Source: Thermoanaerobaculia bacterium (GTDB lineage Bacteria; Acidobacteriota; Thermoanaerobaculia; Gp7-AA8). Taken from it: DNA of 64,000 bases. Shown piece after piece: positions 1 to 16,664 of this stretch (the stretch's first letter is position 1; the number at the start of each line of letters is the position of its first letter). The DNA is taken from contig DATIZY010000017.1 in assembly GCA_035516895.1 (NCBI GenBank), forward strand, positions 3,472 to 67,471. Direction: 5' to 3'. The position numbers and the translations under genes are program-made. The notes under the pieces were generated by a model. That model made no database searches and had not been told where the DNA came from. It was given only the letters and a program-made list of their open reading frames with translations.

Positions 1-273
1 TCTTCGACGATCAGAGCTCGGTGGCCTTGTGTCATCGGTTACGGCGGCGTCAAATTCCTGTGTCGCGCTAACTTTCCCGCCATGTTCGCGTCTCAATGTA
101 CAAGATGAGACGGCCCGCCGCGATTCTGATTCTTCTGCTTGTGACGAGCTGCCGCTTTTCCGATTCGGGGAAGCGCCTCGCGGCCGATGCCGTACTCCAA
201 ACGGTGATGCACCTTCAAGCGAGCGCGCCGCTGACCCAGAGCGCAGCGCGCACGCCGGCCGTCCGGGCGCACT

Positions 274-830
274 CACGCGCGTGCCGTCTCATCGCCTCTC
301 CAGAGATTCTGCGACGCGATGCGAAGCGCACGGTTGAACTTTGCCGACGCGTTCTCCCACGCCACGATTTCCGTCAGCTCCACGATCTCGTCCTCGTCGT
401 AGAGCGCGCGAACGCGCGAAAAAAGCTCGTCCGACACATCGCGGCCCGTGGTGCTGATGGCGTCTGCAAATTCCAGGACGGTCCGTTCTTCGGCTGAGAA
501 GAGCGGCGAGGTCGCGTAGTCGTTCAGCGCGAGAAGCTTTTCATCGCTGATCCCGAGCCCGCTGCCGACCGCAGCGTTGATGTCCTGTCAGAATTCGCAG
601 CCGTTCAGAGATGCGACGCGGCGGTTGATCAGCGCCTGCAGCTTCGGATCGATCAGCGCGGAGGCGTCGATGCCGCTCCACATCGCGCGCACGCCGTAGA
701 AGATCGACGGCCGCCGCGCATAGATCAAGTGATTGTTGAGCGGCGCGCCCCATCGTTTTCGCTGCGCTTCGAGCACGGCGCGCACGCGCGGCTCGACGCT
801 GTCCGGATCGACTCCCGAGATTCTGGCCAT
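274..830 (-). CDS. AhpD-like / carboxymuconolactone decarboxylase family protein, candidate selenoprotein: one in-frame TGA (588..590) at the CxxC position, read as Sec to give a ~185-aa protein
   Basis: ORF 588..899(-) ends ...ASLNGCEF-TGA. The same frame continues without a further stop to TGA at 274..276 as QDINAAVGSGLGISDEKLLALNDYATSPLFSAEERTVLEFADAISTTGRDVSDELFSRVRALYDEDEIVELTEIVAWENASAKFNRALRIA..., which is typical of the C-terminal half of the CMD/AhpD family. The TGA replaces the second Cys of the N-G-C-x-(F/Y)-C redox motif. A GGUC-loop hairpin lies 12 nt downstream. Confidence 0.5.
561..575 (-). other. Candidate bacterial SECIS apical hairpin: gcugc-GGUCG-gcagc, 12 nt downstream of the in-frame UGA
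   Basis: Minus-strand RNA reads UGA cag gac auc aac GCUGC GGUCG GCAGC. The spacing and the GGUC loop are the same as the E. coli fdhF SECIS minimal element (UGA, then a ~12-nt spacer, then a stem with a GGUC loop). Confidence 0.4.
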
Positions 831-844
831 GAAAGAATGATCGC

Positions 845-1609
845 ATGCCGGAGCTGCCGGAAGTCGAGATCTACAAACGCTTTTTCGAGCGGCATGCACT
901 CGGACAGACCGTCACACGCGTGCGCGTCCTCGACGCGCGCATCGCCGGCACGCGCAAGCTCTCGCAGCTCGCCGGCCGCGAGTTCCGGCGCGTGCGGCGA
1001 CACGGCAAACACCTCTTCGCCGACGCCGGCGACCTCTGGCTGCACATTCACTTCGGCATGAGCGGCGATCTCGCGTACTACCGCGACGGCGATCCGCCCC
1101 GGTTCGCGCGGCTCATCATCGATTTCGAGGGCGGGGAACATCTCGCGTACGAGGACATGCGCCTCTTCGGCATCGTCGACCTCACGCCTTCGCCCGAGGC
1201 GTATGTTCGAGAGCACGATCTCGGACCGGATCCGCTGGAGATCGATCTGCGCCGCTTCCGCGAGCGCATCGCCGGCCGCCGCGGCCGCATCAAAGCGCTG
1301 CTGCTTTCGCAGAATGTGATCGCCGGCGTCGGCAATCTCTACGCGGACGAGGCGCTGTTTCGGTCGGGCCTCCGGCCGGATCGTCCGTCCGTCCGGCTCA
1401 CCGCTGACGAGGTGAAGACGCTCTTCACGAAGATCCGCGGCGTGTTGCGCGAGACGATCGCGTTCAAATCGCGCGGCGAGACGTATCCCGCGCGCTTTCT
1501 CATCCAGCATCGTGAGGAGGGCGATCGCTGTCCGAAATGCGGCGGGACGATCCGGCGCACGGTTGTTGCAGGTCGGACGACGTACTTTTGCGCGAGGCAT
1601 CAGACGTGA
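845..1609 (+). CDS. Fpg/Nei-family DNA glycosylase/AP lyase (MutM-like)
   Basis: N-terminal MPELPEVE with catalytic Pro2/Glu3, a central helix-two-turn-helix region, and a C-terminal zinc finger CPKCGG...YFCARHQ. 254 aa. Confidence 0.85.
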   Translation: MPELPEVEIYKRFFERHALGQTVTRVRVLDARIAGTRKLSQLAGREFRRVRRHGKHLFADAGDLWLHIHFGMSGDLAYYRDGDPPRFARLIIDFEGGEHLAYEDMRLFGIVDLTPSPEAYVREHDLGPDPLEIDLRRFRERIAGRRGRIKALLLSQNVIAGVGNLYADEALFRSGLRPDRPSVRLTADEVKTLFTKIRGVLRETIAFKSRGETYPARFLIQHREEGDRCPKCGGTIRRTVVAGRTTYFCARHQT

Positions 1610-1614
1610 GCGAC

Positions 1615-2466
1615 GTGACGAGACTCATTGAAAGAATTGGTGATAATAAATCATTACAAAATGCGGCGGAGCCGATCCAGAACGTCGTGCGCGAGGCGCT
1701 GCCGGGCGACGTCAGGAACTTCCTGCACGGCACCTGGCTCGGTCATCCGCTGCATCCCGCGGTCACCAACATTCCGGTCGGCGCCTGGACCGCGGCGCTC
1801 TTCTACGATCTGATCGGCGAAGAGAAGGCGGCGACCTTGGCGATCGGCGTGGGCCTCGCGGGCGCCCTCGCATCGGCCCTCACCGGCCTGACCGACTGGT
1901 CGGAGACCGACGATCGCGCGCGCAGCATCGGACTGCTGCACGGCACGTTGAATGTCGCCGCCACCGCGCTCTACACGGCGTCACTGCTCGCACGCACGAG
2001 CGGACGACCCCGCGGCCGCGGCACCGCTCTCTCGACCCTCGGCTACGCCATCGCGATGGCCTCGGCGTACCTCGGCGGACATCTCGTATTCGCAGAGCAG
2101 GTGGGAGTCGATCACACCGCGACCGCGGACATGAAGAAGCCGGAGACGTTCACGCGCGCGGTCAAGATCGACGATCTGCGCGAGAACAAACCGGCGCGTG
2201 CGCTCGCCGGCGGCGTCGCGGTGCTGCTCGTCAAACGCGGCGACAACATTTTCGCGATCACCGAAACCTGTCCGCACATGGGTGGTCCGCTTTCGGAGGG
2301 AACGATCGCCGGCGACGCGATCGAGTGTCCGTGGCACGGCTCGCAGCTCGCGCTCGACGATGGTCATGTCGTGAACGGCCCGACCGCGTTTCCGGCGCGC
2401 TGCTTCGATGTGCGCCTGCGCGGCGGGTATGTCGAAGTGCGCGCACGGAGCGCGGGCTCTCGGTAG
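1615..2466 (+). CDS. Membrane protein with DUF2231-like N-terminal transmembrane domain and C-terminal Rieske [2Fe-2S] domain
   Basis: C-terminus carries CPHMGGPL...CPWHG, the Rieske CxH...CxxH boxes. N-terminus has several hydrophobic helices (HGTWLGHPLHP motif). The start was taken as GTG just after the fpg stop; GTG at 1606 is an alternative. Confidence 0.65.
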   Translation: MTRLIERIGDNKSLQNAAEPIQNVVREALPGDVRNFLHGTWLGHPLHPAVTNIPVGAWTAALFYDLIGEEKAATLAIGVGLAGALASALTGLTDWSETDDRARSIGLLHGTLNVAATALYTASLLARTSGRPRGRGTALSTLGYAIAMASAYLGGHLVFAEQVGVDHTATADMKKPETFTRAVKIDDLRENKPARALAGGVAVLLVKRGDNIFAITETCPHMGGPLSEGTIAGDAIECPWHGSQLALDDGHVVNGPTAFPARCFDVRLRGGYVEVRARSAGSR

Positions 2467-2505
2467 CGGCGAAGGGCCGTCGAGGCTCCGCGTTATGATC
2501 GCCGC

Positions 2506-2946
2506 ATGCCGACATGGGCGAAGGTGCTTTTCGGCATCGGCTGCGGGCTGGTGCTGCTGCTGATTGCGGTCGGTGCCGGCGTTTATTTCTTCGTCAACCG
2601 GCACAAAGACGAGTGGCTGGCCGAAGGCAGAAAAGCGCGCGAGGAGGCCCGAACGTTCGCCGCCGGACGAACGGGCGCCGACTGCGTCGAGGAGTCGATT
2701 CGGCGTCTGCGCGAATGTTCGGGGCTGATGTGCGAAGTGCGTGCGCGCGTGTTTCTCGACGGCTGTCTCGATGCCGCCGCCGACTCGCCGCGGCTTTGCG
2801 AGGGCGTTCCGCCGCGCAGTGAAATCATGAAAACCGTTCGTTGGTCGCTCGACGAGTGCTCACGGCGCGGCATGCCGGGGAGCCAGCCGTGCTCGCGTTT
2901 GGTCCAGGAAATCCAGAAGTACTGCGACCGAACGCTCCATCGGTGA
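2506..2946 (+). CDS. Hypothetical membrane-anchored Cys-rich protein
   Basis: N-terminal transmembrane helix (VLFGIGCGLVLLLIAVGAGVYFFV) followed by a soluble domain with eight Cys residues. No recognised family. Confidence 0.4.
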   Translation: MPTWAKVLFGIGCGLVLLLIAVGAGVYFFVNRHKDEWLAEGRKAREEARTFAAGRTGADCVEESIRRLRECSGLMCEVRARVFLDGCLDAAADSPRLCEGVPPRSEIMKTVRWSLDECSRRGMPGSQPCSRLVQEIQKYCDRTLHR

Positions 2947-2950
2947 GCGT

Positions 2951-3979
2951 TCATCGCCCGGCGCGCAGCACGAGCGGCATCGCCCAGTCCTGCCGCGCGG
3001 TCGCGATGTCGCGGCTGAAACGCAGCGTCGCGCCGTCGGACATCCACCGTCCGTCGCTGCAGCGTGAGATGGTCTCGATCGTTCTGCCCGTGCGAATGCG
3101 AATCGCGTTGGCCGTCGCCTCGCGCTCGGCGCGGTAGCGGAAGGCACGACGCCAGACGGACGAAAGATCGGTGCCGAGGTCGTTCATGGGCGCGTGCACG
3201 TCGCAGCGGGTCTCGCGGAAGAGCCCTTCGGCGATGCGGCGATCGCGCTCGATCGAATCGGCGAGCCACTTCGTCGGAAAAAATTGGGCGCCGCTCTTCC
3301 AATACGCCGCCGCCTGATATTGAAACGCTTCGAGCAGCCGCGGTACGACGTCGCGCTGCTGCAGCTCGGCGAACCAGGCAGGCGCGGGCAGCGGCATCTT
3401 CCAGCCGATGGCGTTGATCATGCGCAGCATCGACAGCGCCGCCGTCTGCGCCATCATTTCCTGCTGCGGCTCGAGCGAACGAGCGAGGTTCCACACCGCG
3501 TGCAAGTCGTCCCAGGCTCCCGGATCGTGCTTTCCCGCTTTCATGAGCGCGCTCGCGATGAGCGACCTCGCGATCGTCATCTGCATCCCGCGTCTCTCCG
3601 CCGTTTCGTTGTTGCCGACGCCGCTGATGCCGCCGTTGCGCTTCCAGACAATCCCCTCGCGCAGCAGGAGCTCGCGGATTGCGGAGACGTCGGGCAGGAC
3701 CGGCGGCTCGCCGATCGTGAGATCGCCGCGCGCGATCTCCCGCGCGACGTAGCCATCCAGTTGATCGCTTTTCGCCAGCGCGCCGCCGAGCACGGCCAAT
3801 TTCGCAGATGGCGCGTTGCCTGACAGCGGCGGGTACCGGCCGGCGACGGAGTCGAGCGTGCCCAGCCCCGCCGGCCACGTCTGCGCGGCGGCAACGGCAA
3901 CGGGTCGTTCGGCGCGGAACCAGGAGATGACCCAGACGACGAGGGCGAGCGCGGCCACGACGCCCAACGCTTTTTTCAT
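2951..3979 (-). CDS. Hypothetical signal-anchored protein
   Basis: N-terminal [21 protein letters not shown] signal/anchor and protein-like composition. Lies 10 nt downstream of the next minus-strand gene, so probably in an operon with it. Confidence 0.45.
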
Positions 3980-3988
3980 GTTCGACGT

Positions 3989-5302
3989 CTAGCGCGAGGA
4001 CGCGGCTGTGACCTTCGCCGTCGCACGCGCGAGATCGGCCACCGACGCCGCGCGATTCGGCGTCCGCAGCAGCGATGCGTTGAATTGCTCGATCGCGTCG
4101 CTCGTCCTGCCGTCCTGCAGGAGCAGCTCTCCGTAGAGCTCGTGCGCCGGCTTGAAATTCTCGGGCGGGCCCGACGGCACGCCGAGCGTCTCCTCCGCGG
4201 CAACGGCGAGCTCTGCCTGGTGCAGCGCATCGTTGAGGTTCCCGCGAGCCGCGTCGAGGAGCGCCGTCGCTTCGAGGCGATCCGTTTCCGATTCGATCTG
4301 CGGCAGCGATTTCCCGGCGTCGTCGAGCCGCTTGCCGGCGATCGACTGCAGCGTTTTGCCGAGCGGCTCGTCGAACGTGAAGCTGTCCCAATCGCCGGTC
4401 TCGACCGCGTATCGCACCTTCATCGTCTCCTTCGGCCGGCCGGTCGCCTCGTCGATGAGCTTCTTCGCTTCGGCGTAGCGGTGCATCTGCAGATCGGCGT
4501 ACTCGAGCCACGAGAGGCTGTGCATGTCGGGCTGCTTCCACTGTTTCGACAGCGCGAATGCGGCCTGATTCGATCGCGCGGTCTCTTCCCACATCCCGAG
4601 CTGCAGAAAGATGTGCGACGGCATGTGCAGCGCGTGCGGCGCCGACGAAGCCACGTTCGCGTAGCGGCGCGCGGCGCGAAGCCCGAGCGGCGCAAGAATT
4701 GGATCGTCATACGCGTGGATCATGTAGTGCAGCACGCCGGGATGATCGGGGTGCGACGGCAGCAGGTCCTCGAGGATCGCCGCCGCGCGGATCGATCTCC
4801 GCTCGTCGCGCTGATGCCATTCGCGTGCGCCGAGGATCGAGAGGGCCCAGAAGGTCTGCGCTTCGACATCCGCCGGAAACGCGCGCGCGAGCCGCTCCAT
4901 CGCCGCTTCGTACGCTTCGTTGCGCTGCTGCCTCTCGCCGCGGCCGTACAGCGCTTCGACCGCTTCGATGTAGCCGCGCTCGCGCGGAGTGGCGGAGGCG
5001 GCGAGCGGAATCATCTCCTGGACGACGCGCCGGCCGCCCTCGATGTCCTGCTGGTTCCAGAGCGGATGGTTGTACGTCATGGCCTCGCCCCAGTAAGCGA
5101 GGGCGAACTTCGGATCGACCTTCTGCGCCTCGCGGAACGCCTCGGCCGCCTGCGGATACGCGAAGTTGTGCAGGAGCAGCACGCCCCGGAGAAACGCCGG
5201 CTGTGCTTCCGGCGTGCCCGAGTTCGGGAAAACGATCGTGCCGAGGTGGTTCTGAGCGTGCGCGGCGGCGGCGAGGAGAGCGATCAGGAAGAATTTCCGC
5301 AT
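3989..5302 (-). CDS. Secreted TPR-like repeat protein
   Basis: Signal peptide MRKFFLIALLAAAAHAQ. Helical repeat-like segments (AEAFREAQKVDPKFALAYWGEAMTY...) consistent with a TPR-like fold. Confidence 0.5.
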   Translation of the reverse strand: MRKFFLIALLAAAAHAQNHLGTIVFPNSGTPEAQPAFLRGVLLLHNFAYPQAAEAFREAQKVDPKFALAYWGEAMTYNHPLWNQQDIEGGRRVVQEMIPLAASATPRERGYIEAVEALYGRGERQQRNEAYEAAMERLARAFPADVEAQTFWALSILGAREWHQRDERRSIRAAAILEDLLPSHPDHPGVLHYMIHAYDDPILAPLGLRAARRYANVASSAPHALHMPSHIFLQLGMWEETARSNQAAFALSKQWKQPDMHSLSWLEYADLQMHRYAEAKKLIDEATGRPKETMKVRYAVETGDWDSFTFDEPLGKTLQSIAGKRLDDAGKSLPQIESETDRLEATALLDAARGNLNDALHQAELAVAAEETLGVPSGPPENFKPAHELYGELLLQDGRTSDAIEQFNASLLRTPNRAASVADLARATAKVTAASSR

Positions 5303-5330
5303 GTCTGCATCTTATTCGCCGTGAGCCTTT

Positions 5331-5446
5331 TTTGAATTTCGAATTTCGAATTTCGAATTTCGAATTTCGAATTGAGAATGACGAATCGGCGATCTCTTCA
5401 TTCTTCATTCTGCATTCTTCATTCGAAATTCGAAATCCGAAATTCA
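5331..5446. repeat. Composite inverted tandem-repeat element: (GAATTTC)x5 tandem at 5334..5368, a 47-nt spacer rich in GAATGA/TCATTC, then inverted (GAAATYC)x3 at 5425..5445
   Basis: Read directly from the sequence. The two arms are reverse complements and could form a long hairpin/cruciform. Located in the divergent intergenic region between the minus-strand gene starting at 5302 and the plus-strand gene starting at 5464. Confidence 0.8.
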
Positions 5447-5463
5447 ATTAGACTCCTCCCGGC

Positions 5464-6171
5464 ATGAGAGTCCGCACCGGCACGAGCGGCTACAGCTACA
5501 AGGAATGGAAAGGCAGCTTTTATCCAGAAGATTTACCAGCAAATAAAATGCTGCAATATTATTCCGGCCGCTTCGAGACCGTCGAAATCAACAACACGTT
5601 CTATCGAATGCCGGACACGAAGATGCTCGCGAAATGGAGCGAACAGGTACCGCCATCGTTCACGTTCGTTCTGAAAGCGCCGCAGCGGATCACGCATCAG
5701 AGGAGACTCGCCGGCGCGGAGGAGGACGTCCGCCAGCTCTTCGACGTCGCCACCGCCCTCGGTCCGCAGCTCGGTCCGGTGCTGTTTCAGCTGCCGCCGT
5801 TCGCGCGCAAAGATGCTGCGAAGCTCCGCGATTTTCTCGGCATTCTTCCGCCGAAGGCGCAGGTGGCATTCGAGTTTCGCCACGACTCATGGTGCGATGA
5901 TGAGATCGACTCGATCCTGCGGGCGCGCGATGTGCCGATGTGCCTTTCCGACACCGACGAGGTCGCCGATCCGAACGCGCTCGTGATTCCGACGGCGTCG
6001 TGGGGCTATTTGCGGCTGCGGCGCACGGAGTACGACGATCGCGCGCTCGACGACTGGGCGCGGCGCGTCGAGGCGCAGCCGTGGCGCGAGGCCTACGTCT
6101 TCTTCAAGCACGAGGACGAAGCGAAAGGGCCGCTCTTTGCCGAACGGTTTCGCCGCAGAATCAGTGCCTAG
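5464..6171 (+). CDS. DUF72 (YecE/UPF0759) family protein
   Basis: N-terminal RTGTSGYSYKEWKGSFYP is the hallmark of DUF72. 235 aa. Confidence 0.8.
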   Translation: MRVRTGTSGYSYKEWKGSFYPEDLPANKMLQYYSGRFETVEINNTFYRMPDTKMLAKWSEQVPPSFTFVLKAPQRITHQRRLAGAEEDVRQLFDVATALGPQLGPVLFQLPPFARKDAAKLRDFLGILPPKAQVAFEFRHDSWCDDEIDSILRARDVPMCLSDTDEVADPNALVIPTASWGYLRLRRTEYDDRALDDWARRVEAQPWREAYVFFKHEDEAKGPLFAERFRRRISA

Positions 6172-6174
6172 TGC

Positions 6175-6873
6175 CTAGGCACTGACGTGTTCGCGAATGA
6201 AGTCGATCGTGCGGCGGATGATCGCCCGCGAGCGGTCGTCATCATTCAAAAGATCGAAGCCGTGCTCGCCGTTCGGATGGGCCATCACTTCGAGCTCGAT
6301 GTTTCGTGTGAGCGCTTCGCTGATGAATGCATCCACCGACGCGTTCAGCGCCTGGTGATCCTTGCCGGCGCGTGCGATCAGCATCGGCGGACAGTGCGCA
6401 CCGCTGCGCAGGCGCTCGAGCGGTGACGCGAGGATCGCGTAGTACGAAACGAGCGCGCGCACGTTCGGCTGATCGAAGCCGAAACTGAGGAAGGGACCGC
6501 CGCCGGAAAATGCCCAGAAGATCAGCCGCTCGGCATCGACCTCCGGCTGCACGCATGCGAACTCGATCGCCTCTTCGACGTCCTTCGTCGCTTGCGCGAT
6601 CGCGCTGCCGAAGAAGCGATGATTGAACGTCATCGCGGCGAAGCCGGACGAGGCCGCGAGCGCGCCGTAATCGCGGAACAGCTGCATGTTCTTCGGCTGG
6701 GCGCCGTCGGGCACCGGACCGCCGTGAATGAAAATGATCGCGGCATTCGGCCGGTCGTCCGGCGCGTAAACGTCGGCGAGGACGCCCGGCGCGTATTCGA
6801 TGTCGCTGCGGACGCGAATGCGGGTTTGCGGCGGACGCAACACCAGCGGCTTCGTTGCAATGGACTCCGGCAT
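6175..6873 (-). CDS. Alpha/beta-hydrolase fold esterase/lipase
   Basis: HGG oxyanion motif (IFIHGGP), nucleophile elbow FSGGG (GxSxG variant), and a conserved acidic/His region near the C-terminus. The start is ambiguous: Met at 6879 or 6873. Confidence 0.65.
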   Translation of the reverse strand: MPESIATKPLVLRPPQTRIRVRSDIEYAPGVLADVYAPDDRPNAAIIFIHGGPVPDGAQPKNMQLFRDYGALAASSGFAAMTFNHRFFGSAIAQATKDVEEAIEFACVQPEVDAERLIFWAFSGGGPFLSFGFDQPNVRALVSYYAILASPLERLRSGAHCPPMLIARAGKDHQALNASVDAFISEALTRNIELEVMAHPNGEHGFDLLNDDDRSRAIIRRTIDFIREHVSA

Positions 6874-6877
6874 GCGC

Positions 6878-7645
6878 ATGCTAACCTTCGCGCTCGTGTC
6901 TCTCTTCCGCAGCGTGGCGGTCTTCTCGCTCCTGTGGCTGCTGAAAGCGCTGAGCAGGATCTTTTATCGCCCCGACTTCGGCTGGATCGGCCCGACGCCG
7001 CGCGATCCATGGGCGGGCATCCGGCTCGTCGTGTTTCTCAATCACACGAGCCTCTTCGAGCCGGTGTTTGTCTGCGGAGTGCCGAACCGCTTCATCTGGC
7101 GTCTCGCCGCGCATGGCGTCATTCCCGCGGCGGCCAAAACGACCGAGCGCCCGCTCGTCGGCATGGTGTTCAAGTTCGTGGCGCACCACGTCGTTCCGAT
7201 CACGCGACAACGCGATCACACGTGGTTCGCGGTGCTCGACCGCATCGATCCGAAGTCGATGGTGGTCATCGCGCCGGAAGGCCGGATGAAGCGCGAGACG
7301 GGCCTCGACCTGCAGGGCAATCCGATGACCGTGCGCGGCGGCGTGGCCGACATCATGCTGTCGATCGAGCGCGGGCGCATGCTGCTCGCGTACAGCGGCG
7401 GTCTGCATCACGTGCAGGTGCCCGGCCATTTGCCGAACGTGTTCGAGCGGGTGCAGATGCGGATCGAGAACCTCGAGATCGCCGACTACATGGCCGAGCA
7501 GATGGCGAAAGGGGGAGCGGGCGAGTTCAAGAAGAGCGTCATTCGCGATCTCGAGGCGCGGCGCGACCGCTACTGCGTCGACGACCGCGAGAGAACGCTC
7601 GTGAATTCGACCGCCGGCATCGGCTCGCTGAACAGAAATCCCTGA
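6878..7645 (+). CDS. Lysophospholipid/1-acyl-glycerol-3-phosphate acyltransferase-like protein (PlsC family)
   Basis: N-terminal transmembrane helix, an NHTSLFEP motif (the NHxxxxD/E acyltransferase block I) and PEGRM (PEGTR-like block III). Starts within a few nt of the divergent hydrolase start. Confidence 0.55.
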   Translation: MLTFALVSLFRSVAVFSLLWLLKALSRIFYRPDFGWIGPTPRDPWAGIRLVVFLNHTSLFEPVFVCGVPNRFIWRLAAHGVIPAAAKTTERPLVGMVFKFVAHHVVPITRQRDHTWFAVLDRIDPKSMVVIAPEGRMKRETGLDLQGNPMTVRGGVADIMLSIERGRMLLAYSGGLHHVQVPGHLPNVFERVQMRIENLEIADYMAEQMAKGGAGEFKKSVIRDLEARRDRYCVDDRERTLVNSTAGIGSLNRNP

Positions 7646-8319
7646 ATGAATTCGCAGCGGTGTTCGCGCAGAAACGCCAGCTGCTCCTCGTTCTCCACCC
7701 CCTCGGCGATCACTTTGAGGCCGAGCTCGTGCGCGAGATCGAGGATGCTGCGGGTGATGGCGCGCGATCGCTCGGACCCTTCGACGCCTTTGACGAACGT
7801 GCCCGGAATCTTGACTCCGTCGACGTCGAGCGTCAGCAGGTGCGACAGCGACGAATGGCCGGTGCCGAAGTCGTCGAGCCAAAGCTCGGCGCCGAGGGAG
7901 CGGATTTCGTCGCCGACGGAGCGGAGATGTTTCGGATTTCTGATGAACGATGTCTCGGTGATCTCGAGATTGAGCCGCGAGATGCCGCCGAGTTTTTTCA
8001 GCCGCTGCGCGAGGCGGCCCTGCTCGAACTCGCGCGGCGAGAGATTCACGTTGAGCCGGAGTCCGTCCCAGCCCGCCGAATCGCGCAGAGCCTGCTGCAT
8101 CATCCACGAGTCGAGGCGGAACATTTCCGGACCTTCCTCGGCTCCGTGCGCGATGGGGACGCCGCTGCGGATCTCGCCGGTCGGACGGCGCGCGCGCAGC
8201 AGCGTCTCGGCCGCGACGATCGTTCGCGAATCGAGCTCGTGAATGGGCTGATAAAAGAGGACGAGCTGCTTCCGGTTCAGCGCGCGGCGGACGCCCGCTC
8301 GAGGTGCGGTCTTCGACAT
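7570..8319 (-). CDS. Stand-alone EAL-domain protein (c-di-GMP phosphodiesterase-like)
   Basis: Carries the QPIhELdsr, NLSPREF, EITET and DDFGTGHSSLS..L motifs, and the KIPGtFV and EGVEnEEQ motifs typical of EAL domains. The start was taken at the internal MSKTAPRAG; the longer upstream ORF region is Arg-rich and not protein-like. Confidence 0.7.
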   Translation of the reverse strand: MSKTAPRAGVRRALNRKQLVLFYQPIHELDSRTIVAAETLLRARRPTGEIRSGVPIAHGAEEGPEMFRLDSWMMQQALRDSAGWDGLRLNVNLSPREFEQGRLAQRLKKLGGISRLNLEITETSFIRNPKHLRSVGDEIRSLGAELWLDDFGTGHSSLSHLLTLDVDGVKIPGTFVKGVEGSERSRAITRSILDLAHELGLKVIAEGVENEEQLAFLREHRCEFIQGFLFSEPMPAVEFTSVLSRSSTQ

Positions 8320-8349
8320 GTCGCCATCAGCCTCTACAATCGGCGCGCC

Positions 8350-8988
8350 ATGCCGGTGGAGATTCTTCGCGTAGAGTCGCGTCGCGCGGCGCGGCAGCGG
8401 CGGATGCAGAAGGTGCAGCATCTGTTCGCGGCGGCGCTGCTGATCACGACGGCCATGCAGCACGGCCTCCGATCGCCGCTGGCGATCGCCGAAATCGCAG
8501 CCGGCGCGCTGTTGATTGCTGCGTTCGTGCGCGAGCGACTGCGCCACGGCCATCACGGCGGCGTGGCGTGGGTCGAGATCGCGGGCGCGGCGATGACGCT
8601 CGTCGAGGCGGTCGAGCGGACGCGCGGCCGTCATCATCTTTCGTTTGTCGTGCTGTCGTTTCTCGCGCCGGCGGTGCTGCTCGTCTTCGCGATCTTCGAC
8701 GCCCGCATCGCCGAAGCGCGCTACCTCAAAGCGGACGAGGACGGTTTCGAGGTCCGGCTTCGGCTCTTCTTCCGGCGCCGCGTGCGATGGAAAGAGATCC
8801 GCGGATTTCGAGCGACGAGCGACGCGATCGAGCTCGAAGGCGCTCGGAACATCTCGTTGCGCGGCATCGTCGATCGGGAGGCCGCGGTGCAGTGGAGTGT
8901 TGAGCAGTTCCGCAAGCGAGGCGTGCCGGAGCTAGAAGACACGGCGGACCAGGAGCAGCGTCGCATAGGCGAGGCCGGCGATCGCTAG
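8350..8988 (+). CDS. Putative membrane protein with bacterial PH-like (bPH_2/YdbT-like) C-terminal domain
   Basis: In-frame ATG at 8350 followed by three hydrophobic helices, then a DGFEVRLRLFFRRRVRWKEIRGF segment resembling bPH_2. It is the 3' portion of a long, otherwise implausible ORF (6592..8988). Confidence 0.4.
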   Translation: MPVEILRVESRRAARQRRMQKVQHLFAAALLITTAMQHGLRSPLAIAEIAAGALLIAAFVRERLRHGHHGGVAWVEIAGAAMTLVEAVERTRGRHHLSFVVLSFLAPAVLLVFAIFDARIAEARYLKADEDGFEVRLRLFFRRRVRWKEIRGFRATSDAIELEGARNISLRGIVDREAAVQWSVEQFRKRGVPELEDTADQEQRRIGEAGDR

Positions 8989-9645
8989 CAGGATCGTCCA
9001 CTTGTTGTCTTTGATCACCTGCCAGAGCGACGCCTGCTCCGGCGGTTTGTTCTGCTTCCGCGCGAGCACGTCCATGCGCGTATGTTCCTGCCGCAGGTCC
9101 TGCATGGTGTCGTTGACGCGCTGCTCGAACTGCTTGAGCGGCTGCGGCGATTCGGCGGGCACCGCGACGCCGCGCTGCGTGTCGATCTTCACGAGGTCCG
9201 AGGGCACCGGAGCGACAACGCGATCGCCGTGCTCGTCGCTCGTGACGTCGTACGCGCCCTGGTCGAAGAAGAGCACGGTCGGCCCCACGTTCGAGTCTTT
9301 GACGAAGAGCACGTTCTCTGCACCGGGACGAAACGCCGGGACGCCGATGCTGGTCTGATGCAGCGAACCGATGTGCCCGCCTGGAGTCACGATTGTGACT
9401 TCCGGTGCGGCCGATCCTTTCATCGCCTTCTCGACCTGGAATGTCGAGTACGTCAGGATCCAGCGGCCGCTGGGATCGAACCGCGATTCCTGGCTGACGC
9501 ATTTGCCGAGGATGATGGCCGCGGCTTTGTCGACTTTCTGCTGGAACGAAGCGGCCACGGCCAAGGAAGCCTGAAGAGCCGGCGCGGTGAAGAGAAGCGC
9601 GGAGAAGGCGAGGGCGCAGACTCGGTTATTTGAAGTCATGTCCAC
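8932..9645 (-). CDS. Secreted protein with C-terminal transmembrane anchor (hypothetical)
   Basis: Signal peptide MDMTSNNRVCALAFSALLFTAPALQA and C-terminal hydrophobic helix WTILLAIAGLAYATLLLV. Last gene of the minus-strand surface-protein operon. Confidence 0.5.
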   Translation of the reverse strand: MDMTSNNRVCALAFSALLFTAPALQASLAVAASFQQKVDKAAAIILGKCVSQESRFDPSGRWILTYSTFQVEKAMKGSAAPEVTIVTPGGHIGSLHQTSIGVPAFRPGAENVLFVKDSNVGPTVLFFDQGAYDVTSDEHGDRVVAPVPSDLVKIDTQRGVAVPAESPQPLKQFEQRVNDTMQDLRQEHTRMDVLARKQNKPPEQASLWQVIKDNKWTILLAIAGLAYATLLLVRRVF

Positions 9646-9678
9646 CGATGAACAAGCAATCGACAGGCCACGTTCCCG

Positions 9679-11070
9679 TCATGGACGCGGGGGCAAAACG
9701 ATGGCCCTTTCTTCGCTCGTTTCAATGACTTCCGTCTTATTGCCGATGCCGTGAACTCGCCAGCGGGCCGCCTTCCTGATCCTGCCGCGTGGGAGGAGAT
9801 CGATGTCGGGCCGGACCATCGGGAACGAGGTCTTCGGCGTCTGCGCGGCGAAGAGCACGCTGCCTGTGTCATCGAGAATTTCGAAGACGAAAAACGACGC
9901 GGCGCCCGGCTGAGACTCGTGCCACGAGAACGCGAGCTGACCGGCGAGCGTCACGCCGTCGAACGGCGCGTCGGGGATGATCGTCGGCCCCGTCGGTGCG
10001 GGGCCGAGGAGGATCGCTCCGGGACCGCTGTTCGATGCTGAGGCTGTCGATGCGACCGCGGCCACCGGGCCGCGTGCTGCAGTCAATGAGACAAGCACGT
10101 CGACGGTTGCTTCGGTCGGCGACGTGAACAGCGGCGTGCCGACGATCGTCACGTCTTTGCCGAATGTGATCGTCGTCTCCGATGAAAAGTTCTTGCCGAT
10201 GAGGTGAAGTGTGTATCGCTGGCCGGCCTGCAGCTTCGAGGGAGAGATGACATCGATGCGCGGCCCGATCACCATCTCGGTCGGACGCACCGGCTGCGGC
10301 ACTTCCGGTTGCGGCACGGGCACCGGTTCGGGCTGCGGTGCGGGTGGGGGCGGCGTGATGCGACTGCCAGCCGCTTCGCCGGATGGTTGCGGCTGTGGCT
10401 GCGGCTGCGGCTGTGGAACGGGAGCGGGCTGCGGCTGTGGCTGCGTGCCGGGGAGTTTTCCTGCCGTCGGTTCGCCGGTCGGCTGCGGAACCGGAGTCGG
10501 CTGCGGAACCGGAACAGGCTTTGGCTCTGGAGGAGGTTGCGGCGTCGGAACGGGCGCCGGTTGCGGCTGAGGAACAGGCGTGGGTTGTGGCTGCGGCTGC
10601 GGTTGCGGTTGCGGTTGTGGTTGTGGTTGTGGTTGCGGCTGCGGCTGCGGTTGTGGTTGTGGCTGTGGCTGTGGTTGTGGTTGCGGCTGCGGTTGCGGTT
10701 GTGGCTGCGGTTGCGGCTGTGGTTGTGGCTGCGGCTGCGGGTTCACGGTGAACGCATTCGCAACGCGCACCGGCGTCGGCGCGGCAGCCGTCGCCACGGG
10801 CGTGTAGACGAATGTGTACGCGCTCGTTGGCGCCGTCGGCGAGATCTGAATCGTGAATTGCAGGAACCTGTTCGGATTGCGCGGATTGGAAACGGCGATT
10901 TTGCCCGCTGGTTCGAACGAGATCCCGCCGCCCGGTGGCCACGTCACGTTTGTCGTGATGTCGAGAGTCTCGCCCTGGATGCCGCTGGACGGCGTGAGCG
11001 CGACCTTCGGAAGGGCGACCGACGCCGCGATGAGCAGCGCGCCGAGGGCGACGAAGAAGAGACGCTTCAT
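9679..11070 (-). CDS. Secreted PQ-repeat surface protein: two globular domains joined by a (PQ)n / Pro-rich linker
   Basis: Signal peptide MKRLFFVALGALLIAASVA. About 26 perfect PQ dipeptide repeats flanked by PxP-rich sequence, and a C-terminal beta-rich domain. The start ATG overlaps the stop of the upstream giant gene (ATGA), implying translational coupling. Confidence 0.6.
   Translation of the reverse strand: MKRLFFVALGALLIAASVALPKVALTPSSGIQGETLDITTNVTWPPGGGISFEPAGKIAVSNPRNPNRFLQFTIQISPTAPTSAYTFVYTPVATAAAPTPVRVANAFTVNPQPQPQPQPQPQPQPQPQPQPQPQPQPQPQPQPQPQPQPQPQPQPQPQPQPQPTPVPQPQPAPVPTPQPPPEPKPVPVPQPTPVPQPTGEPTAGKLPGTQPQPQPAPVPQPQPQPQPQPSGEAAGSRITPPPPAPQPEPVPVPQPEVPQPVRPTEMVIGPRIDVISPSKLQAGQRYTLHLIGKNFSSETTITFGKDVTIVGTPLFTSPTEATVDVLVSLTAARGPVAAVASTASASNSGPGAILLGPAPTGPTIIPDAPFDGVTLAGQLAFSWHESQPGAASFFVFEILDDTGSVLFAAQTPKTSFPMVRPDIDLLPRGRIRKAARWRVHGIGNKTEVIETSEERAIVLPPRP
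10584..10741. repeat. Perfect hexanucleotide microsatellite (GGYTGY)n of ~26 units, encoding (PQ)26 on the minus strand
   Basis: Directly visible as ggttgtggctgcggctgcggttgcggttgcggttgtggttgtgg... Degenerate copies extend upstream to ~10300. Confidence 0.85.
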
Positions 11071-14000
11071 TGGCTCACCGCGGACGTCGTCGAAGGATTG
11101 TTCGTCTTGGTTGCGTTGATGCTCGCCGGCACGGCGACCACCGTCGTTCCGTTCATCGCCTGGCCGCTGCTCGCGCCCCAGTTGAACGACATGGTCCCGA
11201 CGTATTGGTGAATGAACTTCGGCGGCGGGATCTGCCCTGTGGAGCTGCTGCGGTTCGCGTCGGCTGAGAACTGCAGGGACAAGTGCTGCGTGAGGCGCTG
11301 CGGCGTCCATGTGACGAGCGCCTGGTAATCCTCGCTGCGCGACTCCAGGTTCGTCAGGTCATTTTTCGAACGGCTGAAATTGACGCGGGGCTGCAGCATG
11401 ATTCCCCAGTTTGGGAGCGTCCAGCTCGGCTGCAGTGACGCGAGATACTGATCCGTGGTCCCGACGGCGGAGCTGCCCGCCGTACGCGTGCCCGACAGCA
11501 CAGCCGACAGATTGAGGTACGGCGTCGGAGTGCCGCCGAAGGTCAGCGTCGCCGCGCTCGTGGTCGAGTCGGAGATCGGTGTGATGCGATCGTGAAGTTT
11601 CTGCACCGTCATGGTCTGCGACAAATTGAAGATCCCGATCGCCTCGGTCACCGTGCCGTTGGCTCCCGATTGGGTGCGATCGAGATCCGGCAGTCCGTAG
11701 CTGGGATTGCCCGAGCCGCGATCGGCCGTCCAGTTCCCGCCTAACGCGAGCGTCGTTCGCTGGCCGATGGAGGTCGTGACCGCCAGGACTCCGCCATTTT
11801 CGCGATTGCGCGGAAGGATCGCGCCCGACGAGTTGCCGTCGCGGAGCGTTCGCAGCTGCAGCGAGAGCGACGTGCGATTGATGACCTTGGTCAGCGAGAG
11901 ATTCGCGCCCGTTCGATCGGGAACGCCGCCGGGTGTGAGTGCGCGGTTCGCCGGATTGACGTAGTCCGCCTCGGTTCGCCGCAGATTGAGCACATATGCG
12001 AACGTTCCCCAGTTGCCGGTCGCGTCGAGCCGCAGCGCGCTGCCCTCGTGTTTCGGTCCGACGGTGGTGGGGTTCGGGTCGAAGCCGCCGTGCGATCCTT
12101 CGAAGATCAGCGTCAGCTTCGGATCGAAGATGTACTTCGCGAAGACGCCGAACGCTTTGCCGACTCCGCCGGCGGAGTTCGGGCCGGCGTCGTCCGTGAC
12201 GCGGAAACCCATCAGCCGGAAGTCCCACTTGTCGTTCGGCTCGGTCTGCAGGGCCGCGGCGCGGATGATCGTCTTCGGACCGAAGTCTCCCGCGAGAACG
12301 CCGGCCGGCTTTGTGCCGAAGGTCTCATATCCCGAGGCGATCATGTGGAAGAGGTGGAGGCGGCCTTCGACGCCGCCGCGCGCGACGCCTGTCGCGAGCA
12401 GCTCCGACTGATCGAGAAAATCGGGCGCGGCGTAACCGATCTTCGCTTCCGGCTGCACGAGGCCCTGCTGCCGCGTGAAATCAGTCAGCCAGTTGCGGCT
12501 CTCCTGCACGGTCTTGTTCGGGTCGGCGAGATCGTGGCGCACCGACATGTCGCCGGTGACTTTCGCTCCCTTGGCGTTCTCGGCGAGGTCGGTTTGCGCG
12601 GAGAACTGCGTGCGCGCGGCATTCGGCTGTCCCGGCGCATCGCCGCCGGCGGCGGTGATCGTGCCGTTCGGCGTCACCGCCCAATCTTTTTGCAGCGATG
12701 GCGCGGCAGGCTGCGCCGCTTCGGGAGCGACCTCCACGTCGAAGCTCCACGTCGTGACCGCGCCCGCGAGCGACAGCCGGACCGAGTGCGTGCCGTTTGC
12801 GAGCGGCAGGAGCGAGTCGTAGTTGATCGAAGCCGCGTCGATTTTCGAGACATTCGTGACGTCGGTCTGATCGAGAGTCATCGCGACGTCCTGCGCTTTC
12901 ACCGTGCCGCTCCATGTCGCGCTGATGTGCGGCTGGTTCGTTGCGACTTTCGATCCGTCCGCCGGCTGCTGATTCGTGACGGCGGGCTTCTGCTGCACGA
13001 GAGCGATCGGCTGCTTCGCGGGCGCGCGCCCGACGTTCGCCGTCGGCGATGCGCCTAACACAACGCCGCCGGGCCCGATCGCCGTCACACGGACGGACGT
13101 GCCGCCGACGCCCGGCGGAATCGCGAAGTCGCTGGCTGCGGTGAGCGCCGAATAGACGACGTTGCCGGCGGCATCGAGCACGTCCACGCGGTACAGCAGC
13201 CCGCTGACGCCGCCGCGCCAGCGCACGTGCCGCTGCTGCACGGTCGCGGTGAGATCGACGTGCTGCGGCACGATCGCGAAGCGCTGCCACTCCGTCGGCT
13301 CGCTTTCGGTTTCGCCGGCGAACACGGCACGGACGCGCCAGCGATGAATGCCCGGCCCGATCTCCTGCAGCGTCCGGGCGCTCGGCTTCCATTGCGCGTC
13401 CGACAGCCGGAAGCGGCGCGGCAGGAGATCGTTGTCGATCTCCACGACGTAGCCGCTGCTGTTCGGAACGAGCGACCAGCGGAACAGCGGCGACGCGCTT
13501 CCGATCACCATGCCGTCGCGCGGCGCGAGCAGCGTCAGGCGCGAGACGCTGTTCGGCGCCATCAGCACGTGCAGCGAAGGTGCGGCGGCGAATTGCGGCG
13601 ACTCGATCTGCAGCTCGAGCGTGTGCGCGCCCTCGTACGAGATCGGCAGCGGCAGATGCGTGCGGACTTCGGCCGGATATCCGCCGCCGACGTTCACCGT
13701 GAATCGATCGAACGGCACGCCGTCGAACTTCCAGACGCCGATGATCGTGCCCGTTCCGGTCGTGGCCAGCAGGCCGCGGGGAAAGACGTTTTGCGACGGC
13801 GCGATCATCGTTCCTTCCGCCGGGAAAACGATCGCCGCGGTCGTGACGCCGAGGGGCGCGGCGATCGAGCCGCGCGGGTAGACGAGAAGCGTCGCGGTTG
13901 CGCTGCCGCCGTCGGGATTCGTCAGCATCAGCGTCGTCGCTCCCGGCGGCGCCTCGGCGATGACGCTCATCGTCACATCGGCGATTTCCGGCGTGATGAC

Positions 14001-16664
14001 GTTGACATTCTCGATGCGGACGCCGGGGTTGACGACCGACACGCGTGCACCCGGCTCGAAGAAGCGGCCTAACAAACGCTCGACGATCGAGCGCTCGCCC
14101 GTCGCGACCGCCGGCGGAACGACGGTGGTAATCACGGGACGCGGAGGCAGAATGCTGAGTGCGACGTCGACGAAATGCGTCGGATCGCTGTTGCCGATGA
14201 AGCGGAGCGTGGCCGGACCCACCGTCGCGTTCGCGGCGATGTCGATCTCGACCTGCTGCGTCTGCCCTGGCGCAATCGTGAACGATGGCGGATTCAGCGA
14301 CACGCCCGGAGGCGGAGTCGCCGTGATCGCGACGCCGCCGGTGAACGCGTTCGATCCGACGACGCCGATCGTCACATTGCCGCTGCTGCCGGCCGCGATC
14401 GAAGTCGCGGATGGCGCGGCGGTGAGCGCGTAATCGGGGCGGCCGCTGACGTTGATGTTCAGCGTCGCGGTCCTTGGGCCGCTGACACCGGCTGCGGTTC
14501 CGGAGAACAACACGCTGCCGGAACTCACGAGTGTGGAGGTGCCGATCGAGATCGTGACGTTGAGCGGAGTGCCCGGAGTCAGCGTGAATGCCGATGGAGT
14601 CACCGAAACGCCCGCAGTCGGGGACGTTGTGACGCTGACCGGACCCGAAAAACCGTTGAGGCCCGTCGCCAGCACGCTCACCTGCATGCTCGCCGATTGC
14701 GCGAGCGAGATCATCGACGGCGAGACCGAGAGTGTGAAGTCGGGCGACCCGGTGATCGTGATGAGGACCGGCGCGGTGTGCGTGCCGACGCCGGTTGCGG
14801 TGCCCGTGAACACGCCGCTGAATGTCGCGGGAGCCGCGCCCGGCGCGATCTTCACCGTGACCGTTTGCGATCCGCCGGCCGGTATCGTGAAGGCCGAAGG
14901 CGTGAAGGTGACGTCGGCGCTGCCCGGCGACGTGACGGACACGGAACCGGTGAATCCGTTCAGCGGTTGCGTCGAGACGGTGAGCGTCGACGTTCCGCCG
15001 GAGGCGATCGAAAGGGAGGAGGGATCAGCGGTGAGAGTGAAGTCGGGGCCGGCGACGACGTTCACCGCGATCGGAGCGGTGCGCGAGCCGGTGATGCCGG
15101 GCGCGGTTCCGGTGAACACGCCGTTGTGCAGCGCCGGCGTCGCGTTGGTCGCGGCGCTGATCGTCACGGTTTGCGAGGCGCCGGGCAGCAGAGAGAACGT
15201 CTGCGGCGAGAACGCGATGCCTGCCAGCGCCGGCGCGTTGACCGTGATGCTGCCGGCGAATCCGTTCACTCCCGCGGCGGAGACGTTCACCGTCGTGCTC
15301 TGCCCCGGAGCAATCGTGACGCTCGGCGGCGCGACGGTGAGTCGGAAATCGGGCGCAGCGACGACTGTGATCGTGACGTTCTGCGTCTTCGTCGTGCCGG
15401 ATGCCGGCGTGAAGGTGAACGTCGAGGTGTACGTTCCCGGCGCGACGTTGCTCGCGGCCTGAGCGACGAACGTCGCCGGCGCCGCGCTGCTCGTCGGAGT
15501 GAACGTGATTCCCGGCGGAGCGGCGGGCGTGACGGTGACCGTGCTGGTGAAGCACGCGTTCGGCGTGATCGACGCGTTGATCGATTGTCCTCCGCCGCCG
15601 GCGGTCAGCGTGATCGCGTTCGGGATGGCGGCCGGCGTGTAGTCGGGCGCGGTGACGGTGATCGAGAGGTTGACGTTCTTGTTGATGTTCGCGGCGGGAT
15701 CGGAAACGTTCAGGACCGCGATGTACGTCCCCGGCGCGGCAGTCCCCGCGTCGACGTTGAACGGAAGCGACTGGTTCGGCGGCATCGCCGCGGCGGCGGG
15801 AAGCGCACTGATGTTGACCCCCGCTGGAATCGAGGTGAACGCGACGCGCGGTGTGCCGCTGTAGCCGTTGACCGGAGCGAGATTGATCGCATCGGAGGCC
15901 GGCGCGCCGCCCTGACAAACGTTGATCGCAGGATTGCTGAAGATCGCCGAGATGTCGGGCTGCTGCACGATGATCGTCAGCGCGTTCGGAAATACCTTCT
16001 GAACTCCAAGCTCGTCGACGCCAGTGAGCGTGCCGCTGTACGCTCCCGGCGTCGCCCCTGCGCCTAACGAGAACGTGAACGTCAGCGGGTTGTACGGTTG
16101 TGGCGTCGTCTGCGCCGGAGGCACGTTGATGAACGACGGGAATCCGCTGAACGAGTACGTGAGCTGTTTCGCGCCGAAGCCGGGATCGGGTTTCGTCGTC
16201 ACGGTCACCGACTGCGCCGTCCCGCCGATGACCAGCGTCGTCGGGTTCGGAGCGACGCTCGCGGTGTACGACGGAGTGTTGACGACGAGTGTGACGGTCG
16301 TCGTGCCCGCGCCGAACGCATCGCGGAGAGTGATGGGATACGTGCCTGGGGTCGTGCCGGCGCCGACCGCGAATCGAAACGATGTCGACGCCGATGTCGA
16401 GTTGAGCGTGTACGGATAGGTCACCGGCGACGGCAGCGTGTTGACGCCGGCCGGCAGTCCGCCGACGACCACGGTTCCGGTGGCATTGACGCTGCCGGTC
16501 GCATAGGTGAGCGTGACTGCGACGGCCGGAGTGGTCTGCGTCGGAAGGGCGCTGACCATCGCGGGGACGGCATTCACGATCGCGTACGCAATCGGGACAG
16601 CGCAGAGAATCAGACCTGTCCAGAATGCGCGCCGAAAAACCACTCCACCGGGTCGAATGTCCAT
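11067..16664 (-). CDS. Giant (1865 aa) secreted cell-surface protein with >=7 tandem Ig-like repeats and a C-terminal beta-rich domain
   Basis: Signal/anchor at N-terminus. Repeated ~100-aa units begin PDF(T/R)L(T/S)... or PDY... and contain G(F/S)(T/A/S)GS..V and GVFTGTA blocks. The C-terminal ~530 aa is Ser/Thr/Asn/Gly-rich with alternating hydrophobic residues, possibly a beta-barrel or beta-helix. Confidence 0.8.
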   Translation of the reverse strand: MDIRPGGVVFRRAFWTGLILCAVPIAYAIVNAVPAMVSALPTQTTPAVAVTLTYATGSVNATGTVVVGGLPAGVNTLPSPVTYPYTLNSTSASTSFRFAVGAGTTPGTYPITLRDAFGAGTTTVTLVVNTPSYTASVAPNPTTLVIGGTAQSVTVTTKPDPGFGAKQLTYSFSGFPSFINVPPAQTTPQPYNPLTFTFSLGAGATPGAYSGTLTGVDELGVQKVFPNALTIIVQQPDISAIFSNPAINVCQGGAPASDAINLAPVNGYSGTPRVAFTSIPAGVNISALPAAAAMPPNQSLPFNVDAGTAAPGTYIAVLNVSDPAANINKNVNLSITVTAPDYTPAAIPNAITLTAGGGGQSINASITPNACFTSTVTVTPAAPPGITFTPTSSAAPATFVAQAASNVAPGTYTSTFTFTPASGTTKTQNVTITVVAAPDFRLTVAPPSVTIAPGQSTTVNVSAAGVNGFAGSITVNAPALAGIAFSPQTFSLLPGASQTVTISAATNATPALHNGVFTGTAPGITGSRTAPIAVNVVAGPDFTLTADPSSLSIASGGTSTLTVSTQPLNGFTGSVSVTSPGSADVTFTPSAFTIPAGGSQTVTVKIAPGAAPATFSGVFTGTATGVGTHTAPVLITITGSPDFTLSVSPSMISLAQSASMQVSVLATGLNGFSGPVSVTTSPTAGVSVTPSAFTLTPGTPLNVTISIGTSTLVSSGSVLFSGTAAGVSGPRTATLNINVSGRPDYALTAAPSATSIAAGSSGNVTIGVVGSNAFTGGVAITATPPPGVSLNPPSFTIAPGQTQQVEIDIAANATVGPATLRFIGNSDPTHFVDVALSILPPRPVITTVVPPAVATGERSIVERLLGRFFEPGARVSVVNPGVRIENVNVITPEIADVTMSVIAEAPPGATTLMLTNPDGGSATATLLVYPRGSIAAPLGVTTAAIVFPAEGTMIAPSQNVFPRGLLATTGTGTIIGVWKFDGVPFDRFTVNVGGGYPAEVRTHLPLPISYEGAHTLELQIESPQFAAAPSLHVLMAPNSVSRLTLLAPRDGMVIGSASPLFRWSLVPNSSGYVVEIDNDLLPRRFRLSDAQWKPSARTLQEIGPGIHRWRVRAVFAGETESEPTEWQRFAIVPQHVDLTATVQQRHVRWRGGVSGLLYRVDVLDAAGNVVYSALTAASDFAIPPGVGGTSVRVTAIGPGGVVLGASPTANVGRAPAKQPIALVQQKPAVTNQQPADGSKVATNQPHISATWSGTVKAQDVAMTLDQTDVTNVSKIDAASINYDSLLPLANGTHSVRLSLAGAVTTWSFDVEVAPEAAQPAAPSLQKDWAVTPNGTITAAGGDAPGQPNAARTQFSAQTDLAENAKGAKVTGDMSVRHDLADPNKTVQESRNWLTDFTRQQGLVQPEAKIGYAAPDFLDQSELLATGVARGGVEGRLHLFHMIASGYETFGTKPAGVLAGDFGPKTIIRAAALQTEPNDKWDFRLMGFRVTDDAGPNSAGGVGKAFGVFAKYIFDPKLTLIFEGSHGGFDPNPTTVGPKHEGSALRLDATGNWGTFAYVLNLRRTEADYVNPANRALTPGGVPDRTGANLSLTKVINRTSLSLQLRTLRDGNSSGAILPRNRENGGVLAVTTSIGQRTTLALGGNWTADRGSGNPSYGLPDLDRTQSGANGTVTEAIGIFNLSQTMTVQKLHDRITPISDSTTSAATLTFGGTPTPYLNLSAVLSGTRTAGSSAVGTTDQYLASLQPSWTLPNWGIMLQPRVNFSRSKNDLTNLESRSEDYQALVTWTPQRLTQHLSLQFSADANRSSSTGQIPPPKFIHQYVGTMSFNWGASSGQAMNGTTVVAVPASINATKTNNPSTTSAVSQ
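14160..16280. repeat. Tandem ~290-300-bp coding repeats (Ig-like domain units) inside the giant surface-protein gene
   Basis: Protein-level periodicity of ~97-105 aa (PDFTLTADPSSLSIASGG..., PDFTLSVSPSMISLAQSAS..., PDYALTAAPSATSIAAG...) maps to roughly this DNA interval. Confidence 0.6.

Follow-up and report, generated by a model that had tools for sequence, protein, structure and literature searches.

Does a 26-unit hexanucleotide run inside a coding sequence represent a genuine coding repeat, does its length differ between closely related genomes, and what would it contribute to the encoded protein? We asked these questions of a locus in a 64,000-nucleotide stretch of acidobacterial DNA (hereafter, the window), in which a gene on the reverse strand encodes an unusually regular Pro-Gln (PQ) segment.

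The Pro-Gln tract and the protein that carries it

A single uninterrupted run of exactly 26 GGYTGY units, located with the regular expression (GGYTGY)n, occupies window positions 10583..10738 of the forward strand. On the reverse strand, in the codon register of the gene, the tract reads (CCR CAR)26 at 10585..10740 and encodes (PQ)26, residues 111-162. The initial annotation had placed this (PQ)26-encoding run at 10584..10741, which is borne out to within one base at each end. TRF reports the tract at 10583..10740 with a period of 6, 26.3 copies and 85% matches. Four-unit GGYTGY matches number 25 in the window, all confined to the PQ gene, against 0.00 expected from 100 dinucleotide-preserving shuffles.

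At the DNA level the tract is heterogeneous. Its 52 variable bases are all synonymous third positions, each forward-strand Y being the third base of a CCR or CAR codon, and four unit variants are present (GGTTGT, 9; GGCTGC, 8; GGTTGC, 6; GGCTGT, 3). The longest exactly periodic (period-6) stretch is 23 bp, or 3.8 units, and exact internal repeats, at whatever offset, reach at most 23 nt in the window allele and 32 nt in the second allele described below. The description of the repeat as perfect therefore holds for the protein and for the degenerate formula, but not for the DNA, with its four unit variants and 23 bp of exact periodicity. Because the A/G interruptions leave so short an exactly periodic stretch, slippage should be much less frequent than in an array of 26 identical units; the tract does change length in frame (see below), but its proneness to slippage had been overstated.

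Other readings of the same bases were set aside. TRF scores a period of 24 above the period of 6, yet third-position autocorrelation is flat at lags 1-12, including lag 8, and a higher-order period was rejected. Six terminator-like matches with 20-pair "stems" on the forward strand (10603..10674) are G-T-paired self-pairings of the repeat within a gene on the opposite strand, and are not terminators. The forward-strand frame at 10580..10807, a 75-aa shadow ORF beginning MGCGCGC, is made by the repeat on the opposite strand and is not a gene. It had been called a (GC)n artefact from the outset, and the comparison with orthologues agrees, since the reverse-strand frame joins an N-terminal domain and a C-terminal module that are each conserved. 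The PQ tract is a real, though ordinary, kind of coding repeat.

The whole PQ gene (9679..11070, reverse strand) encodes 463 aa and starts at MKRLFF, an internal start within the ORF 9679..11310. Its product begins with a signal-peptide-like N-terminus (11011..11070, reverse strand), MKR followed by LFFVALGALLIAASVAL, which was read by eye; a hydrophobic leader is also present in the aligned orthologues. A conserved N-terminal domain of ~85 aa follows (aa ~25-110; 10741..10998, reverse strand), as delimited by orthologue alignment, and ends in ANAFTVN right before the tract. The proline-rich linker spans ~150 aa, consisting of (PQ)26 and then 100 aa of degenerate X-Pro repeats (aa 163-262; 10285..10584, reverse strand) that include a second run, (PQ)5, and the islands TGEPTAGK and SGEAAGSR. 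Degenerate copies had been noted for ~280 bp beyond the tract, and they are indeed present, over ~300 bp toward lower coordinates. The two non-proline islands lie at ~10456..10479 (aa 198-205) and ~10360..10380 (aa 231-237), respectively, and an island consensus, GEATGGR, is kept within the hypervariable linkers of L002, L005, L006, L007, L008 and P0003. Such an island could be a candidate processing or binding site.

The C-terminal module (~200 aa; 9679..10284, reverse strand) was assessed with Pfam, AlphaFold (AF2) and Foldseek, and is predicted to comprise an IPT/TIG-like domain followed by a second Ig/FN3-like beta-sandwich domain. In the Pfam search, residues 270-337 match an Ig-like Qn_am_d_aIII/TIG domain (PF09099; 25.7 bits, cut-off 22), and PF01833 falls just under its threshold (19.2 bits against 20.9). 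The AF2 model, built from an 11-sequence alignment, shows two beta-sandwich domains with a pLDDT of 78.8. Foldseek searches with this module retrieved tandem Ig/FN3 adhesion modules (NCAM Ig5-FN1 and Yersinia InvE) as well as the IPT/TIG domains of EBF1/EBF3, with an rmsd of 2.2-2.9 over ~90 columns. A score over the curated cut-off and a matching fold thus both point to a predicted IPT/TIG-like Ig domain. Matches of the PQ protein to Pfam Trypan_PARP, NCBIfam TonB and PDB sequences were rejected as low-complexity only. No secretion-system signal was identified with Pfam or NCBIfam in the PQ protein or in the fused homologues described below. Folded domains flank the tract on both sides in a protein with a signal peptide, the latter judged by eye, and given the signal-like leader and the adhesin-like Ig folds the protein may be surface-exposed.

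The PQ gene is flanked by two genes on the same strand. The start codon of the PQ gene and the TGA stop of the upstream gene share bases in an ATGA, and this translationally coupled neighbour (11067..16664, reverse strand) encodes 1865 aa with many Ig/Fn3-like repeats. The downstream gene (8932..9645, reverse strand), in the same strand block, encodes 235/237 aa with a signal-like N-terminus and a hydrophobic C-terminus. Exact-sequence database look-ups with the 463-aa PQ protein and its 1865-aa neighbour returned no match. The same gene order recurs in L001, L002 and L017. In two Acidobacteriota MAGs (L003, 4144..10953; L004, 3220..9678), a homologue of the giant protein and the C-terminal module are found in a single ~2200-aa ORF, which has no proline-rich linker. 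The 1865-aa protein shares 34% identity over 543 aa with the fused homologue, and Pfam detected no domain in the fused giants of L003 and L004. This fusion argues that the 1865-aa and PQ proteins work together. Relatives carry the labels 'Thermoanaerobaculia bacterium' (P0003) and 'Thermoanaerobaculaceae' (L004; Acidobacteriota). The PQ gene would belong to a three-gene envelope or adhesin-like module of a soil bacterium, a Thermoanaerobaculia-type acidobacterium.

Orthologues, linker evolution and codon usage

Full or near-full orthologues were compared at L002, L006, L007, L009 and L011, with 44-69% identity in the C-terminal module. All five retain the N-terminal domain and the C-terminal module, and their linkers are hypervariable. 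Right after NAFTVN, orthologues carry only (PQ)4-6 where the window carries (PQ)26, and the tract is therefore a lineage-specific expansion. The initial annotation had proposed a recent expansion, and the (PQ)4-6 runs at the homologous site bear this out. Past their short PQ runs, the orthologues have amplified different units, among them (PQPQPTPT)n in L006 and (TTTQPPP)n in L012, and their linkers may have PT, PA, PV, PE or PK in place of PQ at the same site. One relative, L010, is without both the linker and the N-terminal domain. NAFTVN and RPTE are separated by 151 aa in the window, 157 aa in L006, 138 aa in L007 and 109 aa in L009, and total protein length is 463 aa in the window and 462 aa in L006. 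From these alignments, total spacer length looks loosely conserved across orthologues, with composition free.

One to several extra IPT/TIG domains are inserted between the linker halves of L002 (P0002, aa ~170-255), P0003, L011, L012 and L015, and the window protein has no extra IPT/TIG domain within its linker. Judging from the alignments, the linkers appear to be where domains are gained and lost in this protein family. Searching for homologues with only the N-terminal domain gave no match, though P0002 contains the domain, which marks a sensitivity limit of the search.

Codon usage in the tract was compared with that of 23 other high-GC3 ORFs in the window. In this reference, Pro codons are 71% CCG, 22% CCC, 3% CCA and 3% CCT, and Gln codons are 88% CAG and 12% CAA. 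The tract uses CCA at 12/26 Pro codons (46% against 3%, binomial p = 2e-10) and CAA at 15/26 Gln codons (58% against 12%, binomial p = 5e-8), and neither CCC nor CCT occurs among its 26 Pro codons (p = 5e-4). GC3 falls from 0.79-0.84 in the folded domains to 0.65 in the degenerate linker and 0.48 in the tract. A roughly 50:50 mixture of A and G with zero transversions at 26 four-fold-degenerate sites indicates that the sites did not saturate independently. This pattern fits the spread and mixing of a few founder variants (CCG/CCA and CAG/CAA) by many duplications and deletions; both founder codons of each pair are already present in the short PQ runs of the orthologues. It is likewise what a dynamic array would show if purifying selection maintained PQ. 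The variants follow one another in an order that cannot be told apart from a random permutation, and no clear block-duplication history could be recovered from it.

The mixed codons also weaken predicted structure. The minimum free energy (MFE) predicted for the tract mRNA is -19.2 kcal/mol, compared with -41.4 +/- 6.4 kcal/mol under the window's usual codon usage (0/300 as weak) and -70.4 kcal/mol with all-preferred codons; for the forward DNA strand the predicted values are -20.6 and -73.2 kcal/mol, respectively. The weaker structure from A-ending codons is a purely compositional effect. Selection of codon order against exact repeats was rejected (longest repeat 23 nt, against 25.8 +/- 4.6 in same-composition permutations), as was selection of codon order against structure, the actual MFE being slightly stronger than that of same-composition permutations.

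A-ending codons are also enriched in related linkers. At orthologue loci with any CCA, this codon accounts for 12-29% in the linker and 3-16% in the domains; a short L008 fragment is without CCA. CAA makes up 33-80% in each orthologue linker and 17-57% in the domains of the same locus. The enrichment may reflect selection or a regional mutation bias; the high-GC3 ORFs of the window contain no further proline-rich region that could act as an internal codon control. As a tentative and rather doubtful extension, the family-wide enrichment might be a selected stabiliser of long (CCG-CAG)n / (CTG-CGG)n-type arrays. The enrichment cuts the predicted hairpin potential of the array about three- to four-fold; if it is selected, a very long dipeptide spacer would stay replicable and translatable while its units remained similar enough for length tuning.

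Length variation between near-identical genomes

Only one database protein (P0001) is 100% identical to the query, and it is encoded on the ENA contig k141_4525868 (L001; ENA ERZ27256514, MEGAHIT k141), an independent assembly that, like the window, derives from a metagenome. L001 aligns to window positions 1..10757 with 99.5% identity over 10.8 kb, or ~99.9% outside tandem repeats. Its first base lies 16 nt ahead of the tract, which it crosses in full, with 30 units compared with 26 in the window. The first 21 and the last three units are identical base for base. A single 24-bp event was ruled out as the difference between the two alleles, which requires either two in-frame 12-bp indels or one 24-bp indel together with three substitutions. 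Among the first 700 bases compared, the remaining ~520 aligned bases, on both sides of the tract, are identical, and the rest of the alignment (~10.6 kb) holds ~14 substitutions (0.13%).

The alignment further contains two 7-bp indels, both in a heptamer repeat that lies between genes (5370..5440). Every one of the four indels separating the window from L001 therefore falls in a tandem repeat, and by simple arithmetic on this comparison the 156-bp tract has roughly ten times its share of events. The heptamers belong to an AT-rich intergenic spacer (5303..5463) that separates the divergent genes 3989..5302 (reverse strand) and 5464..6171 (forward strand, DUF72). This spacer contains (TTTCGAA)6.3 at 5330..5373, CATTCTT-type heptamers and an inverted (TTCGAAA)n arm at ~5422..5447; between the window and L001 one heptamer was gained, one was lost and three substitutions occurred. 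It may be a variable regulatory repeat or hairpin.

Heritable in-frame length variation, which the initial annotation had predicted, is thus observed between two assemblies as alleles of 26 and 30 units. The further expectation of change in 2-aa steps without a frame break holds as regards the frame, but the observed steps are of 12 bp (two units), not of single units. An identical repeat number in related strains, named beforehand as evidence against the idea, was not found, the counts of 26 and 30 being taken from two assemblies rather than from read pileups.

Two further near-identical contigs end before they can yield an allele length: L017 (Logan, SRR8881010) begins 18 nt before the tract end, and L018 stops short of the tract. 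L017 and the window show nine substitutions over 2753 bp, all of them within the PQ gene (L017 1..924 against window 9679..10602), with none in the 1.8 kb downstream of it, and four of the nine are non-synonymous (V194A, A216T, A343T and R432K). The PQ gene is a local divergence hotspot, by way of a recombined allele or diversifying selection.

These observations raise the possibility of an adaptive contingency locus, that is, a selected hypermutable device diversifying the reach of a surface antigen or adhesin, for example in escape from phages or predators. Copy number does differ between near-identical genomes, the clustering of all L017-window substitutions in the PQ gene (four of them non-synonymous) is in keeping with such a device, and so are the hypervariable linkers among orthologues. 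However, the repeat unit is a multiple of three within a coding region, so that on/off switching is impossible, and the units are non-identical, with at most 3.8 in exact succession, which lowers slippage. Moreover, the roughly conserved linker length in orthologues indicates stabilising rather than diversifying selection on length, and the sample is two alleles. We consider this explanation unlikely.

Alternatively, the tract length could have been mis-assembled, by collapse or expansion, in the window, in L001 or in both, with no true polymorphism. Short-read contig ends do lie at or within the tract (L001 starts at window position 10757 and L017 at 10602), which shows that the tract is hard to assemble. 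Most database homologues (P0004-P0010) start inside or just past the linker with artificial internal start codons. An assembly artefact would be in line with this truncation of homologues and with the contigs of three short-read assemblies ending at or inside the tract. However, exact internal repeats do not exceed 32 nt in either allele, so an assembly at k = 141 should not collapse or expand the tract; with exact repeats limited to 23-32 nt, paths at this k are unique. Both assemblies agree base for base over the first 21 and last three units and differ by exactly 2 x 12 bp, in frame, and the ~14 point substitutions elsewhere indicate that they represent different genomes. An artefact is accordingly very improbable.

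A functional role of the PQ run itself, as a binding surface, a self-association or low-complexity adhesive segment or a modification site, is just as hard to credit: Gln-rich and Pro-rich segments can mediate interactions, and 52 residues free of amino-acid interruption despite third-position variation suggest purifying selection or a very recent protein-level spread, but orthologues have PT, PA, PV, PE or PK instead, L010 does without linker and N-terminal domain altogether, and composition is not conserved apart from the alternate prolines.

A probable variable spacer and its known counterparts

With a probability of roughly 70%, the tract is a lineage-specific in-frame PQ expansion that serves as a length-variable linker spacer in an exported Ig-domain protein. 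In this arrangement, (PQ)26 lies within the first half of a ~150-residue linker between the N-terminal domain and two C-terminal Ig-like domains of a protein predicted to be Sec-exported. The alternating X-Pro pattern would be expected to adopt an extended polyproline-II-like (PPII) conformation, by analogy with TonB-type linkers and from the alternate prolines and PPII geometry. PPII geometry spans ~0.31 nm per residue. The spacer would then reach ~16 nm over its 52 residues, or ~0.6 nm per PQ, and the difference between 26 and 30 units would correspond to ~2.5 nm.

Length change would arise when near-identical units misalign, through replication slippage or unequal recombination, and the array gains or loses multiples of 6 bp. 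Since changes occur in multiples of 6 bp, the frame would never be broken, and heritable length alleles would result, of which those with 26 and 30 units are observed. The third-position A/G mixture would lower both exact repeat length and hairpin potential, so that the array would vary without the hypermutability of a perfect microsatellite. Given that total linker length looks loosely conserved, gaining or losing a few units is probably close to neutral, a matter of tuning and not of switching. More generally, slippage drives the evolution of XY direpeats, and synonymous codons can 'freeze' them (PMC10652141), a picture that fits the tract.

The locus leaves the current understanding of repeat biology unchanged. 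Its value is as a documented non-pathogen example of an in-frame variable dipeptide spacer, set in an uncharacterised acidobacterial module that combines a predicted secreted Ig-domain protein with a giant Ig-repeat partner. It is also a small natural case in which a long protein repeat is kept without long exact DNA repeats (A/G only, no CCY, rare codons enriched). In practice, the tract is a possible strain-typing marker and a flag for assembly caution. Members of this gene family listed in metagenome protein catalogues are nearly always truncated, since the linker is where contigs break.

In functional class, the tract would work like the variable in-frame dipeptide spacers of exported multidomain proteins. 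It shares with them an alternating dipeptide repeat with synonymous variation, here (PQ)26 with CCG/CCA and CAG/CAA. Simple-sequence contingency loci resemble it in having a short tandem repeat whose copy number differs between close relatives (26 and 30 units, n=2). However, those loci have homogeneous tracts that alter the frame or the promoter spacing, whereas the PQ tract is heterogeneous as DNA and always in frame. A phase-variable contingency locus was rejected on the grounds of four unit variants, a 6-bp unit inside an ORF and two alleles that are both in frame.

TonB/TolA domain II consists of proline-rich X-Pro polyproline-II rods whose length sets reach (PMC12204202), and the alternating X-Pro of the PQ tract would be expected to give a similarly extended PPII spacer. 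Unlike TonB, the PQ protein has no TonB C-terminal domain and no N-terminal SHLS-motif membrane anchor, and its spacer links Ig-like domains. Identity as TonB was rejected, with NCBIfam NF008084 scoring 17.3 bits against a cut-off of 315, over aa 90-166 only, and no Pfam TonB domain. In Bordetella pertactin, region 2 (PQP)n varies in copy number among isolates and is used for typing (PMC12243275). Both are Pro-Gln-rich coding repeats in exported adhesin-type proteins (predicted here), but pertactin has a tripeptide unit in few copies within an autotransporter passenger, and Pfam found no autotransporter domains in the PQ protein.

The SD repeats of staphylococcal Clf/Sdr proteins, which lie between folded adhesin domains, undergo rearrangements that keep the frame, and their length varies by strain (PMC3324548). 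The PQ tract differs from them in its composition, its acidobacterial host, the absence of an LPXTG anchor and of a Gram-positive wall, and its 6-bp base unit with no clear 18-bp higher order. Membership of the Sdr family proper was rejected, the repeat being PQ rather than SD and the C-terminus (...AIVLPPRP) having no LPXTG. What the two would have in common is an in-frame length difference in a repeat placed between folded domains of an exported adhesin-type protein, a setting that is predicted for the PQ protein.
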